Virus record (IMG/VR): IMGVR_UViG_2630968543_000001
Source of the DNA: a virus
Taxonomy: Monodnaviria; Loebvirae; Hofneiviricota; Faserviricetes; Tubulavirales; Inoviridae
Length of the DNA: 13,368 bases
Direction: 5' to 3' (one strand)
The translations under genes were made by a program, and so were the position numbers. Under the pieces are notes generated by a model. It had not been told where the DNA came from, did not search any database, and saw nothing but the letters and a program-made list of their open reading frames with translations. This document shows, piece by piece, positions 1,700 to 9,927 of this stretch. Every line of letters begins with the position of its first letter. The first letter of the stretch is position 1.

Positions 1700-1733
1700 A
1701 ATAAAGAACGTGCAGTGTTGGTAATACTGCACG
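1700..1733 (-). terminator. Hairpin with U tract downstream of repressor gene copy 1 (terminator and/or origin-associated structure)
   Basis: 8-bp perfect inverted repeat CGTGCAGT (1709-1716) / ACTGCACG (1726-1733) with a 9-nt loop. On the minus strand it is followed by UUCUUUAUU (complement of 1700-1708), about 30 nt after the repressor stop. The tandem-repeat boundary (1721) falls in the loop. Confidence 0.45.
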
Positions 1734-1763
1734 TTTGTCTCATTCCTGAGACTGTTAATCCTT

Positions 1764-2210
1764 TTACTCTTCTCCAGACACCGCTTTTTTCATAAACATT
1801 TTAGTACTGTAAGTGTATGAACTTAATGCAGAAACCTGCCTTGCGAGTGCCAGAATATCTTGTTTTTCCAGTGTCCTGATGTTCCACACGATGAAATTAT
1901 GTGCGTTAGTGGTTTCTTCATCAGTATATCCATCCGCAGAAGTGATTAGCTTCCGCTCGGTAGCTTCTTCTTTAACATCAAGAGCATAGCCATAAGCTAA
2001 GGTGTTTAAGTCTGCACCCGTAATTTTAGCTATCTGAATGATGTCACTGAATTTAGGTTCAGTTTTGCCGGACGCTATCCTGACCAGCGTACTCACGCTA
2101 ATGCCAGTCTTCTCGGCCAGTTCTTCATAAGTCGAGTGTTCCAGAATTACCTTTTTGATACGTTCTGCTCTCTGTTTGTCCGCCATAACTTCATGCTCAT
2201 TGTTGCCCAT
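1764..2210 (-). CDS. XRE-family (Cro/CI-type) helix-turn-helix transcriptional regulator, putative phage repressor (copy 1)
   Basis: ORF-track 148 aa. HTH-like segment around aa 27-47 (TYEELAEKTGISVSTLVRIASG). GGAG lies 8 nt upstream of the ATG on the minus strand. The gene is divergent from the replication gene, as with rstR/rstA of CTX-type phages. Confidence 0.75.
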   Translation of the reverse strand: MGNNEHEVMADKQRAERIKKVILEHSTYEELAEKTGISVSTLVRIASGKTEPKFSDIIQIAKITGADLNTLAYGYALDVKEEATERKLITSADGYTDEETTNAHNFIVWNIRTLEKQDILALARQVSALSSYTYSTKMFMKKAVSGEE

Positions 2211-2381
2211 CTACTTGGCTCCATCTTAACAGTGGTTTTTCAATAGTTAGATTTGATGCTCATTTCTGACAATTTAAACATTGCAAATGTATTGACTGTC
2301 AGATCTGAGCATATTACATTGTGACCATTCAATCTGCTCACAAATGACTATTGACACATATTTTGATGGGTGTGACTACTT
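2211..2381. promoter_or_regulatory. Divergent promoter/operator region between repressor and replication genes (copy 1)
   Basis: Plus-strand candidate sigma70 promoter TTGACT (2292-2297), 17-nt spacer, TACATT (2315-2320). Minus-strand candidate TTGTCA (complement of 2267-2272), 17-nt spacer, TAACTA (complement of 2244-2249). Repeated TGAC-core motifs include the palindrome TGACTGTCA (2293-2301), with inverted ATGCTCA (2256-2262) / TGAGCAT (2307-2313). Confidence 0.5.
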
Positions 2382-3434
2382 ATGATCGACTGGTTTACCG
2401 GAATCCTGCCTTGCACACACCGACCGTTACCGGCTGGTAGTGTCGTCAGCGTCGATGCTGACGGTGCAGTGGAGTGGGAAACAGTAAAACGGTTGACCGT
2501 TCGCGGTTCGCATGAGTCCACAATGAAAGTAAGGTCTGTTGGATCTGATGGTGAAGGTAGGGCAACACATCTCTACATTGACGGTAATCCATCAAAGTTT
2601 TTGCAAGGTCACTCTGTTATCGGTTCCGACGATTTGCAAGGGTTGGTGTTAACAGCTTACGCCAGAATATTGGCATTACTGCATATTCCTCATGATCTAC
2701 CATCCTATCGGCAGGTCATGGAAGGGCAATTTAAGATCTCGCGCATCGATATCAATTACATGTATTCATTGTCAACATTAGAAAATGTCCGCGCATGGTT
2801 ATATGCCGCAGAATTTAAAGCTAAAACTCGCCACGGTCGCGCCTGTGGTAAAGGTGGCACTGTTTACTTAGGGAAAAACTCCCGTCGTTGGAGCCTGAAA
2901 TTTTATTCAAAATATGATGAGCATACATCTGGCAAAAAAGGGCACCAGATGGCAGACGAATTCGTTAAAGCTGGTTTACTGGACTGGTCAAAAGATAAAT
3001 TACGCATTGAATTAACATTAAGAACAACTGAATTAATTGATTTGAATCTTACGCTTGGTAATAGCTGGAATATTGAGACGCCCAATAAATTATTCTCTGA
3101 CTATGTAGGGAGAATAGAAATGAATCAAAATACTATATTAACTGATGAAAAAATAATTAATCTCCCAAGAAAAATACAGTCTACATATTTATTGTGGAAG
3201 CAGGGCACGAACATGAAAGAGATGTTACCGAAACCTACATTCTACCGACACCGTAAAGAATTACTTTCTTTCGGAATAGATATTAACTTTTATTGTGAGT
3301 CACCGGATTCTAATAACGTTGTTCCGTTGGTTCGTACTCTTGAAGCCAAACCAGCCAAAATTCCATCATGGGTTTATGAGAAAGGTTTAATTTTCGATTA
3401 TAACCGTATTTCACATGCCAGTAACTGGCATTAA
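2382..3434 (+). CDS. Rolling-circle replication initiation protein (gpII/RstA-like), copy 1
   Basis: ORF-track 350 aa. It is the first gene divergent from the repressor. It contains a YSKYDE segment resembling the conserved Tyr-Asp-Lys-type motif I associate with the phage replication-initiator family; the size is typical. No strong SD; the start codon is uncertain. Confidence 0.65.
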   Translation: MIDWFTGILPCTHRPLPAGSVVSVDADGAVEWETVKRLTVRGSHESTMKVRSVGSDGEGRATHLYIDGNPSKFLQGHSVIGSDDLQGLVLTAYARILALLHIPHDLPSYRQVMEGQFKISRIDINYMYSLSTLENVRAWLYAAEFKAKTRHGRACGKGGTVYLGKNSRRWSLKFYSKYDEHTSGKKGHQMADEFVKAGLLDWSKDKLRIELTLRTTELIDLNLTLGNSWNIETPNKLFSDYVGRIEMNQNTILTDEKIINLPRKIQSTYLLWKQGTNMKEMLPKPTFYRHRKELLSFGIDINFYCESPDSNNVVPLVRTLEAKPAKIPSWVYEKGLIFDYNRISHASNWH

Positions 3435-3445
3435 AGGAGAGTGAT

Positions 3446-7882: not shown

Positions 7883-7916
7883 ATGCGAACCTTTAAAATG
7901 TAATGGAGATAGAGTT

Positions 7917-8150
7917 ATGTTTAAAAAAATCGTTAGTTTTCTGGCTGTACCTGCATTAATGGCTGTTTCTGGCGCGACTTTCGCTGCAGAAGGAGCGGCA
8001 TCAAGTGGTGTTGATTTATCGCCGCTGACGAACAGCATTGATTTCAGTACAGTTCTGGTTGCGATTATGGCCGTTGCTGCTTCACTGGTAACACTTTATG
8101 CCGGTGTCGCTGGCGTTCGCTGGGTATTGCGTACCGTTAAATCCGCATAA
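7917..8150 (+). CDS. Major coat protein (gpVIII-like), copy 2
   Basis: Identical 77-aa translation to 4052-4285. Confidence 0.8.
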   Translation: MFKKIVSFLAVPALMAVSGATFAAEGAASSGVDLSPLTNSIDFSTVLVAIMAVAASLVTLYAGVAGVRWVLRTVKSA

Positions 8151-8163
8151 ATTCATTATTCAT

Positions 8164-8191
8164 GGGCGATGCAATATCGCCCGTTTTACTT
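8164..8191 (+). terminator. Intrinsic terminator downstream of the major coat protein gene (copy 2)
   Basis: Identical to 4299-4326 at offset 3865. Confidence 0.65.
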
Positions 8192-8214
8192 GAGGTTATT
8201 ATGGAGATTGAATT

Positions 8215-9927
8215 ATGGAAATTGGGTTCCCTTTTATGGGGGATCGTCTCAGCTTATGTCGTTATTCTTGGGCTAAGAGGCTGACGGTTTATTCCTTTAT
8301 TTTTTCCTTTCTCTGGGTTTCCTTTCCCCGATATTCATATTCATTTGTACCAGCAATTGCAGCAGTGGCTGCGCGGGCTGTTATTCCTAAAGTCGTTGGC
8401 CGGGTGCTTGTTCGTCGCTTTGCTGCCAATGATGCGATTTATACGGCATCACAGCTTACAGCAACCCGTGTTTTTGTTGGCCGCGCTGCGGCTAATGCTG
8501 CCGAATACTTGCCTGCTGCCTCATCATACAAAATGAGCGGTGTTGCAACGTGGGCGGGTATTGCTGCTGCTGTATCATCTTTTGTTCCGTCTTCTTTGAG
8601 TTCATCTGACGGCTCGGTAATGGTAATGACTAACGGTAAAAAGATTTCCGATAATTTATATGAAGTAACGTACAGTGGTCAAAGTGGTGAAAGTAAGACG
8701 ATAACCGTTAATTTTGAACCACAGGAATTAAGTCCGGTAATCCTTCATGTTAGTCGTAATAATGTGGATGCGGGTTCTCCAGTTGTAGGTGTTGAAACAG
8801 GATATTCCACGCCAGATAATGCACTTTATTATTATCAGGATTCGAAAGAGCTAATTTATTACTATGGTGATAATCCAACTGAAATTGCCAGAAATTATCT
8901 TAATGACTATAACTCGCGTACTTATACTGAAACACTAACAAATTTTGAACGCACTGTGACGAATAAAGTTGTCAACAGTAATGGAGATGTATCCTTTACT
9001 GAACAGAATTATAAGTTTACTTATCCTTCCTCATTTTATGAAATACCTGAGATTACACACTTGTATAGCAACCCGGCCGCATCTTCATTTCCCGCAGGTA
9101 TTCCCATGTATGAAAATGTAGCAGGGCTTCCCATGTATTACAGCGTTGCTTATTTAACAGCAGGCAAGCAATATCAGTATCACAACACGCCTTGTAAAAC
9201 GACTAATCAGTCAAATGGTGGATATTCGACGATTTGCGCCGTTCCTGAAAAAGAGGATTACACCGCAAAAGATATTGATGAAAAGAGTGAGCTTACTATC
9301 TGGACCAATACCAAATATAAAGCCATGACGGAAGTACTGGAGGCCGGAAATATTGAGTCCATGATTGATTATCTGGAGTATCTTGATAGTGTTAGTGTAT
9401 CGCCAGCACTTCTTGCCGACATGATTAACGAGCTGTGGTCTGAAGCTGCCGTTAATGCCGATTATAACGGCTTACCGTTTAAAGAGGTTTCACCGGCTGA
9501 AGTAACTTCTGCGATGTCGGAACTTAGGCTATCTCCAACGTTATTAGATATGCTTTCACCTGTATCTGACAGTGCAGGGGCTGACGTCAATATTGATATT
9601 ACCATTAATAACAACTCAGGATCTGACACTGGAAATAATGGCAATATAGATTTGGGAGAAGATCCCGGTGTAAAAGAGCCTGAGCTTGAAGAAACGCCAA
9701 CGGCAAGAGATATTTTAACGCCAATTATTAACTTGTTGCCTTTTACAAACGAATTTAACATCGGCTCTCGTTCAGCATCCTGCCCCGTTGTTGAATTCAG
9801 CGTGTTTAATCACCAGTACAGAATTGACTCCCATTGTCCGTTAATTGAGCAGAACAGAAGCGCCGTAGAAACCATATTTCTGATTATATGGGGATTTGTT
9901 GCGCTCCGTATTATTCTGAGTGCCTAA
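8215..9927 (+). CDS. Minor coat / adsorption protein (pIII-like), full length
   Basis: ORF-track 570 aa. N-terminal basic-then-hydrophobic segment (RYSWAKR-LTVYSFIFSFLWVSF) is compatible with a long signal peptide. An Asn/Gly/Ser-rich linker (ITINNNSGSDTGNNGNIDLG) and a C-terminal hydrophobic anchor (TIFLIIWGFVALRIILSA) follow. It lies between the major coat and pVI/pI genes. The start codon is uncertain. Confidence 0.6.
   Translation: MEIGFPFMGDRLSLCRYSWAKRLTVYSFIFSFLWVSFPRYSYSFVPAIAAVAARAVIPKVVGRVLVRRFAANDAIYTASQLTATRVFVGRAAANAAEYLPAASSYKMSGVATWAGIAAAVSSFVPSSLSSSDGSVMVMTNGKKISDNLYEVTYSGQSGESKTITVNFEPQELSPVILHVSRNNVDAGSPVVGVETGYSTPDNALYYYQDSKELIYYYGDNPTEIARNYLNDYNSRTYTETLTNFERTVTNKVVNSNGDVSFTEQNYKFTYPSSFYEIPEITHLYSNPAASSFPAGIPMYENVAGLPMYYSVAYLTAGKQYQYHNTPCKTTNQSNGGYSTICAVPEKEDYTAKDIDEKSELTIWTNTKYKAMTEVLEAGNIESMIDYLEYLDSVSVSPALLADMINELWSEAAVNADYNGLPFKEVSPAEVTSAMSELRLSPTLLDMLSPVSDSAGADVNIDITINNNSGSDTGNNGNIDLGEDPGVKEPELEETPTARDILTPIINLLPFTNEFNIGSRSASCPVVEFSVFNHQYRIDSHCPLIEQNRSAVETIFLIIWGFVALRIILSA

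Follow-up and report, generated by a model that had tools for sequence, protein, structure and literature searches.

Illegitimate recombination at the M13 origin, and at the pC194 origin versus the progressing fork, is reported to have been described by Michel and Ehrlich in 1986 among deletions in laboratory hybrid plasmids; one end of those events is said to lie at the initiator nick, while the other varied and carried a few nucleotides of sequence like that 5' of the nick, and the events reportedly depended on rolling-circle replication (RCR). From what Davis and Waldor in 2000 and Moyer et al. in 2001 are said to have found for CTX-phi/RS1, tandem origins matter for rolling-circle production from the chromosome. 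The single-stranded DNA of RCR and the nick sites of replication initiators (Rep) are known hot spots of illegitimate recombination, filamentous miniphages recur, and the deletion edges of Pf5 miniphages lie a few nucleotides apart. A review of the YpfPhi/CUS-1 phages describes dif integration and an organisation as in the prophage studied here, together with inverted XerC/XerD sites, and reports that YpfPhi arrays vary between 2 and 4 copies within a population. Here we analyse a stretch of 13,368 nt of inovirus DNA (IMG/VR record IMGVR_UViG_2630968543_000001; the whole stretch is referred to as the window), which is one complete CUS-1/YpfPhi-like inovirus prophage at the Escherichia coli dif site and carries an internal 3865-bp tandem duplication. 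We propose, with a probability of roughly 0.7, that illegitimate recombination anchored at the Rep nick of the plus-strand origin made this tandem and that unequal exchange followed. The mechanism is already known, and a natural and recurrent example of it is modestly new.

Comparison of the window with itself showed that positions 1721-5585 and 5586-9450 are the same 3865 nt (0 mismatches) in head-to-tail order, as an earlier note on this DNA had described, and an exact repeat of 3.9 kb cannot have arisen by chance. Identity at an offset of 3865 nt continues for just 2 nt further (1721-5587 equals 5586-9452) and is about 25% elsewhere, so that the microhomology at the junction is GT, the dinucleotide named in that note. 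The junction reads GTCTGAAGCTGCC followed directly by GTAATACTGCACG. The gene content of the repeat is also as previously listed (repressor, Rep, gpV-like protein, small open reading frame (ORF), coat protein, terminator and the 5' part of the pIII-like gene), with one truncated and one complete gene set in the array. The truncation affects gene III (gIII) of copy 1, which is read through the junction into a 436-amino-acid (aa) fusion made of 413 pIII residues and a 23-aa tail; the fusion is without the conserved C-terminal domain, the PHROG matches to which span residues 467-570 only. The complete origin hairpin is found in copy 1 only. At the junction just the 3' half is kept, giving a hybrid origin that contains no inverted repeat and has a folding free energy (dG) of -3.7 (z +0.2).

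The left breakpoint lies at 1720|1721, with an ambiguity up to 1722|1723 owing to the GT, and falls in the loop of the predicted plus-strand origin hairpin. This hairpin has a dG of -11.6 kcal/mol (z -5.4), which places it in the top 0.8% of phage genome positions, and together with the 20 nt 3' of it forms the sole block conserved with the intergenic region of phage I2-2 (a 36-nt block). The nick of M13 gpII has been mapped at CTTT^AATA. A three-way alignment of the origins of the window, I2-2 and M13 puts this nick opposite GGT^AATA of the window, i.e., T1722^A1723, inside the three-position crossover range, and the left breakpoint is thereby predicted by homology to coincide with the Rep nick. 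The origin and the nick position make up a directly testable prediction for the replication module of the CUS-1/YpfPhi/I2-2 group.

A scan for the right half of the origin in IMG/VR, the GTDB representative genomes and metagenome contigs yielded 62 loci from Escherichia, Yersinia pestis, Klebsiella, Kluyvera, Pantoea and more distant genera. The complementary left arm was present in nearly all of them, and the hairpin was conserved in at least 60. As a separate observation, the 22-nt right half GTAATACTGCACGTTTGTCTCA is found without a change in distant bacteria, in contrast to a variable loop and left flank; the distant carriers (L047, L049, L051 and L086) belong to Sulfuritalea, Marinobacterium, a metagenome-assembled genome labelled 'Aerococcus' and metagenomes, and this conservation suggests a very widely shared Rep/origin module.

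Three of the 62 loci have a foreign left flank joined exactly at |GTAATAC. Locus L029 holds a 754-bp tandem duplication with 2 mismatches between its copies, the distal end of which lies 106 nt into the Rep gene (microhomology GTAA); L067 holds a perfect 2419-bp tandem duplication ending inside the coat gene (GT); and L048, from Klebsiella spallanzanii, is a composite of gIII, 38 nt of gI and the origin, with the gI piece at the distal end (GTA). Together with the window, these loci show four distinct distal sites and one proximal site in common. Their crossover ranges overlap only at |G, G|T and GT|A, a range that includes the predicted nick, and GT ends all four distal sites. The same origin breakpoint has been reused with differing distal ends and short microhomology, and a replication-associated illegitimate event, which the earlier note had suggested, is the best reading of a left break that falls at the predicted gpII nick and recurs at the same nucleotide in three other, independent duplications. 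As in the events attributed to Michel and Ehrlich, the four junctions combine a fixed end at the nick site with a varied end; unlike those deletions, they include tandem partial duplications in natural chromosomal prophages that are inherited in wild E. coli clones.

The origin right arm is the 5' end of the displaced strand. In a post hoc comparison with the 554 GT sites of the genome, which favours a pseudo-origin reading, the 30 nt upstream of the four distal GTs paired with this arm more strongly than those of most GT sites (p values of 0.038, 0.0036, 0.022 and 0.26; Fisher 4e-4), and the distal site of L029 holds an exact 8-mer of the left arm (GTGCAGTG). For the window, the 30 nt upstream of the gIII breakpoint pair with the right arm better than at 96% of the GT sites. 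The combination of a fixed proximal site, varied distal sites at GT and arm pairing is the signature to be expected of aberrant rolling-circle termination. The junctions of L067 and L029 were not found as a single piece in the complete E. coli genomes. In K. spallanzanii, a few kb from the L048 junction, another locus (L052, NZ_CABGGS010000034.1) has two origin cores at a distance of 225 bp, with masked (N) sequence in between, and may be a further rearranged array.

As to the exact nick position, the dependence on Rep and the order of events, we infer the following scheme. Rep, a member of the gpII family, would nick the origin hairpin at GGT^AATA and stay on the 5' end of the displaced strand. 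Termination would then fail at the next intact origin, and the 5' end would be joined to a 3' end at ...GCCGT in gIII, a site that would act as a pseudo-origin by virtue of an upstream sequence able to pair with the origin right arm. The product could have formed by two routes with the same end structure: a mini-circle of 3865 nt, from the origin to the truncated gIII, may have entered the prophage by homologous recombination, or a deletion of 5638 bp, from the 3' end of gIII to the next origin, may have been made in a full-length tandem dimer. Unequal exchange of the RecA type would afterwards shift the copy number between 2 and 3 and keep the copies identical. Each truncated array does have a near-identical sister with ordinary full-length tandems (MINF_1D for the window and CUVET21 for a second carrier, STIN_95), and the 3865-nt loops in assembly graphs fit tandem copies or circles alike. 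The copy number in the window is uncertain.

Such a unit resembles the miniphages of Ff (M13/f1) and Pf4/Pf5 in keeping the origin and the replication genes and in being without the assembly and export genes. It differs from them in that it is known integrated in tandem with its helper and not as a free or packaged genome, and in that gV, the coat gene and the repressor are still present and no packaging signal can be recognised. The likeness to CTX-phi/RS1 lies in a dif-integrated filamentous prophage that stands beside a shorter related element with repressor and replication genes. RS1, on the other hand, is a satellite that brings rstC and an Xer att site of its own, neither of which the unit has; the unit starts at the predicted origin nick, contains no dif-like site in 1721-5585 and has genes that are all identical to those of the helper. 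The unit is without an att region and an obvious packaging signal; it looks more like a fixed deletion product of the miniphage type than like an RS1-like satellite. Finally, the window shares with the YpfPhi/CUS-1 arrays the phage group, integration at dif, dynamic tandems of 2-4 copies and an origin core that is found in Y. pestis too, and differs from them in that those arrays consist of full-length units at imperfect dif sites, whereas the partial units here run from the predicted origin nick to the truncated gIII.

We further examined where else the gIII junction occurs. Among 5426 complete RefSeq E. coli genomes it was found in STIN_95 only, which has three units, two truncated and one complete. 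The 436-aa fusion protein recurs without change in at least 10 other contigs. These comprise a complete chromosome with three units (OZ039018.1), a draft contig with two (QONL01000131.1), two gut-metagenome scaffolds and 3.9-kb contigs, of which those of 3920 and 3895 nt have terminal overlaps of 55 or 30 nt that close them into a 3865-nt loop. No match to the junction 31-mer was obtained in IMG/VR, JGI metagenome contigs or the GTDB representatives. OZ039018.1 agrees with the window at every comparable base, the sole difference being the number of units (3 vs 2). The carriers of the window type have a common host context, including an IS3 adjoining attL, and therefore form one clone. STIN_95 has a host flank only 96% identical to that of the window type, which makes it a different host lineage, and a different accessory module. 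Its phage haplotype differs from the window at 12 sites of the unit, 11 of which are common to junction-less prophages of the FEX669/CUVET21/NC101 type, and 3 differences in 16 kb separate it from CUVET21, which has three full-length tandem copies. The STIN_95-type variant of the fusion protein is present on 16 contigs. The right part of the window (9451-13368, 3918 bp) is in turn 100% identical to MINF_1D, a strain with full tandems. One junction thus occurs in two phage backgrounds, each nested among ordinary full tandems. The further multi-copy arrays, in FEX669, FDAARGOS_1303 and CUVET21, all proved to be ordinary full-length tandems.

Several observations weigh against an origin at the Rep nick. 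The nick position is predicted from an alignment with the M13 origin, to which the similarity is only partial, and the pairing statistic was designed after the pattern had been seen. The similarity between the gIII breakpoint and the origin is weak: the sequence AACGAGCTGTGGT (9427-9439), upstream of the breakpoint, resembles the left arm with 3 mismatches, and its uniqueness was rejected, as four plus-strand sites per genome match at ≤3 mismatches and one of them matches better. A special hairpin at the gIII breakpoint was likewise discarded, with a z of -3.96 in one 56-nt fold and 10% of genome positions as good. About 20 GT sites score as well in pairing as the gIII site. A second independent hit at gIII would therefore call for some further bias, for selection or for lateral transfer, and the scheme does not fully account for the same gIII junction on two haplotypes. 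Scans for dif sites, inverted repeats and genes in the 1721-5585 unit returned no att or dif-like site and no obvious packaging signal, and PLSDB and the RefSeq complete E. coli genomes contained no circular or plasmid record of 3.9 kb.

The two backgrounds could also go back to a single ancestral junction that moved between phage lineages by homologous recombination or with a co-transmitted mini-genome, after which unequal exchange made the copies conform to the resident haplotype, a reading that deserves serious attention even if we would not favour it. The junctions are identical to the nucleotide in spite of the weak pseudo-origin features of gIII, the arrays clearly homogenise (as seen from the allele at site 3207 and the Rep stop codon of CUVET21, see below), and the closest distinguishing single-nucleotide polymorphisms lie 185 and 106 bp from the junction, leaving room for a short imported tract. 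Yet the STIN_95 unit equals the junction-less FEX669/CUVET21 prophages at all 11 lineage-specific sites and has no window-type allele, the 96% identity of the host flanks and the different accessory modules mark separate lineages, both carriers have sisters with full tandems within their own clones, and a unit without att and an evident packaging signal would be a poor candidate for independent transmission. On balance, we find it somewhat more probable that the junction formed independently in the two backgrounds, at a preferred pseudo-origin, than that it formed once and was then transferred laterally and homogenised. It is possible as well, though less likely than not, that the junction is real and the two chromosomal copies are not, the assembly representing either three or more tandem units or a single-copy prophage accompanied by a free 3865-bp mini replicative form. 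The terminal overlaps of the 3920- and 3895-nt contigs are k-mer-sized and imply a 3865-nt loop, the otherwise identical OZ039018.1 has three units and the near-identical QONL01000131.1 two, and a collapsed loop would make the copies perfectly identical; if the window comes from a short-read assembly, graph traversal could have imposed both the number of two copies and their identity. Two complete chromosomes nevertheless place the units in chromosomal tandem, the 2 mismatches between the copies of L029 imply that such tandems exist as separate DNA, and the searches for a circular record just mentioned do not favour a free form; moreover, this explanation would alter the copy number or location and not the origin of the junction.

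Slippage or template switching at the origin hairpin during replication of the host chromosome, independent of Rep and guided by the GT microhomology, would agree with the strength of the hairpin and the shortness of the microhomology. Slippage provoked by hairpins usually removes the palindrome or brackets it at its base, whereas each of the four independent breaks is in the loop, where the 3' arm begins and where the M13 nick aligns, and leaves the 3' half in place; the pairing of the distal sites with the right arm also fits Rep termination better, and we regard slippage as improbable. A phage that integrates at dif, often in 2-4 full tandem copies, might further be thought to have built the array by XerCD recombination or by successive integrations in the style of YpfPhi or CTX-phi, followed by decay. 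Full tandems are joined at a hybrid dif, whereas the junction here, GCTGCC|GTAATAC, has gIII on one side and the origin on the other and carries no hybrid dif or attP, and the unit lacks the att region. A dif-like sequence is absent from the window at ≤3 mismatches, and at 8-9 mismatches attL alone is found, which rules out an Xer origin and leaves integration followed by decay with a negligible chance. The rejection of Xer recombination in the earlier note was thus well founded, with no dif-like site at either breakpoint and true Xer tandems joined at hybrid dif sites, and the same applies to its rejection of homologous recombination, as there is no long homology at the breakpoints.

The perfect identity of the copies had been taken in that note to imply a recent event, and this part of its account is not supported: at least two host lineages share the junction, which also occurs in many assemblies, and the copies within arrays are kept uniform. 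Site 3207 of the unit is A or G depending on the carrier, with one allele throughout each array, and all three full-length copies of CUVET21 (L026, E. coli CUVET21-PYO5) have the same stop codon in Rep (unit site 3117), which clearly reflects either concerted evolution or an amplification that followed inactivation. The uniform 3207 alleles and the CUVET21 stop codon show that array copies stay identical by concerted evolution or by assembly collapse; unequal homologous exchange and short-read collapse of repeats both make copies look identical whatever the age of the junction. Perfect identity of tandem prophage copies is therefore not evidence of recency. For annotation and assembly it also follows that such arrays create 3.9-kb graph loops with uncertain copy numbers, and that an apparent pseudogene, a truncated pIII/PuvA, may in fact be expressed as a fusion ORF.

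Replication errors anchored at a nick are familiar chiefly from laboratory plasmids and from miniphages; on the proposed reading, they would leave recurrent heritable scars in natural prophages of both pathogenic and commensal Enterobacteriaceae. With the array, the prophage gains a second set of the repressor, Rep, G5P and coat genes, together with an N-terminal pIII fragment that has no anchor. We speculate that this fragment could interfere with superinfection, by analogy with fragments of Ff pIII and with pIII(CTX) of Vibrio cholerae. A wider and rather unlikely view is that partial units are a regular by-product of Rep, with pseudo-origins within phage genes, each made of an element like the left arm and a GT after it, as secondary terminators, and that the resulting mini-genomes reinsert beside the helper and are retained in gut E. 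coli clones for a benefit to the host or the prophage. If so, the unit would be a chromosomally fixed natural counterpart of cheater miniphages or RS1, and any function of the extra copies might lie in the added repressor dose, in a block to superinfection by the anchorless N-terminal pIII/PuvA fragment or in competition with the helper for Rep.

Features of the window and of the duplicated unit (positions in the 13,368-nt window; the genes from the repressor to the terminator are given for copy 1)
Feature	Position	Strand	Remarks
Hybrid dif-like attL (GGTGCGCATAATGTAcgactcgttatgt)	4..31	+	True left end of the prophage; 20/28 matches to E. coli dif, XerC arm perfect
24-nt inverted repeat adjoining attL	24..83		88% complementary; arms 24-47 and 60-83
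Accessory module, single copy	104..1664	-	DUF6953 104-370; DpnII/MboI-like nuclease-domain protein 381-1175; ORF140 1242-1664
Predicted plus-strand origin hairpin	1707..1735	+	13-bp; arms 1707-1719 and 1723-1735, loop GGT; predicted Rep nick T1722^A1723
Copy 1 of the 3865-bp unit	1721..5585	+	Origin right half, repressor, Rep, G5P, ORF83, coat gene, terminator, truncated gIII
Helix-turn-helix (HTH) repressor	1764-2210	-	
gII/X-family rolling-circle initiator (Rep)	2382-3434		Domains Phage_CRI and G2P_X_C
G5P single-strand-binding protein	3446-3763		
83-aa membrane ORF (ORF83)	3766-4017		
Major coat gene	4052-4285		
Terminator-like hairpin	4297-4319		
Truncated pIII fusion ORF	4350..5660	+	436 aa from the longest start; PGAP-type start near 4500
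Novel junction, hybrid origin	5572..5600	+	gIII GGTCTGAAGCTGCC fused to GTAATACTGCACGTT; left arm of the origin hairpin missing
Copy 2 of the unit	5586..9450	+	Runs on into the rest of the prophage
Full-length pIII-like gene	8215..9927	+	570 aa; phrog_3942 over the full length
Distal breakpoint region in gIII	9424..9456	+	Microhomology GT at 9451-9452; local hairpin
Single-copy remainder	9940..13231	+	pVI-like DUF2523 9940-10227; Zot/pI 10231-11256; secretin pIV 11256-12500; two small ORFs
Two small ORFs	12589-12837 and 13035-13231	+	Latter given by the ORF tool as 12983-13231

Compared with the chromosomal prophages of about 90 complete E. coli genomes, the window is 99.8-99.9% identical, and the prophage there has about 9503 bp, the single-copy length; a megablast of the whole window against the phage collection, in which CUS-1 has no record, gave no match. 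The prophage has a hybrid site at its left and an intact dif at its right, the latter lying 4 nt past the end of the window as seen in the equivalent locus L001 (also in L004), and its left host neighbour is hipA. Matches to Pfam and PHROG reveal the gene set of a filamentous phage, i.e., gII/X Rep, G5P, coat protein B, pIII-like, pVI-like, Zot/pI and the secretin pIV, and the Rep of the window is 57.8% identical to gII of I2-2. The origin core of Y. pestis NCTC5923 is identical to that of the window, and the gene organisation agrees with the review of YpfPhi/CUS-1; the 570-aa pIII-like gene is probably the homologue of CUS-1 puvA, whose role we take from that review.

The earlier note had placed the duplication at the left end of the prophage, and on this point it has to be corrected, as the unit starts 1.7 kb inside. 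In MINF_1D the 9504-bp unit forms a full head-to-tail dimer within which window positions 1-1720 are repeated; being repeated in full tandem arrays, these positions are an accessory module of the phage and not host DNA, and the host alternative is ruled out by full tandems of E. coli and of a Klebsiella plasmid alike. With attL at the window's edge and positions 1-1720 made up of phage DNA, the duplicated segment is internal. The inverted repeat next to attL probably belongs to a folded single-strand attP region, a role that fits the inverted XerC/XerD sites of the YpfPhi review. An apparent second, inverted Xer-like site follows it near 84-105, the hybrid dif overlaps the repeat, and the layout of positions 4-105 is like that of the folded single-strand attP in CTX-phi.

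Among relatives the accessory module varies greatly, and related prophages have other modules in its place. Across the loci sampled (window 104-1664; L002, L013-L022 and L025), the region between attL and the origin occurs in at least 5 or 6 unrelated versions, e.g., DUF6953 with the DpnII/MboI-like nuclease, STM4504/CBY_0614, or an ECs_2282 zinc-binding protein with a hypothetical protein, and one metagenome scaffold has two full tandem copies with differing modules (L013/L014). The region looks like a hot spot for cargo or defence genes. A module boundary at the origin nick was ruled out, as the homology between STIN_95 and the window extends well to the left of the hairpin.

Plasmids also carry this phage or parts like it. 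The 248-kb K. pneumoniae plasmid NZ_CP132684.1 (IncFIB/IncHI1B; L027, 55877-87741) holds a full tandem dimer of a 99.9% identical phage, with a DUF6953/DpnII-like/ORF140 accessory module identical in type to that of the window, and this dimer implies that the phage has crossed genera and is able to integrate into a plasmid site. E. coli TUM14759 has, beside chromosomal copies, a free circular "plasmid" record of 9565 bp (NZ_CP128883.1), presumably the replicative form. A stretch of 123-135 nt in the HTH region of the repressor (about 2037-2171) is 92-97% identical to HTH regulator genes on many plasmids of E. coli, Salmonella and Shigella, of about 41-57 kb (one of 205 kb) and nearly all predicted to be conjugative. 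In the protein collection, the 436-aa fusion falls into a 90% cluster represented by a 341-aa Zot protein, which is probably a clustering artefact and unsafe for annotation.

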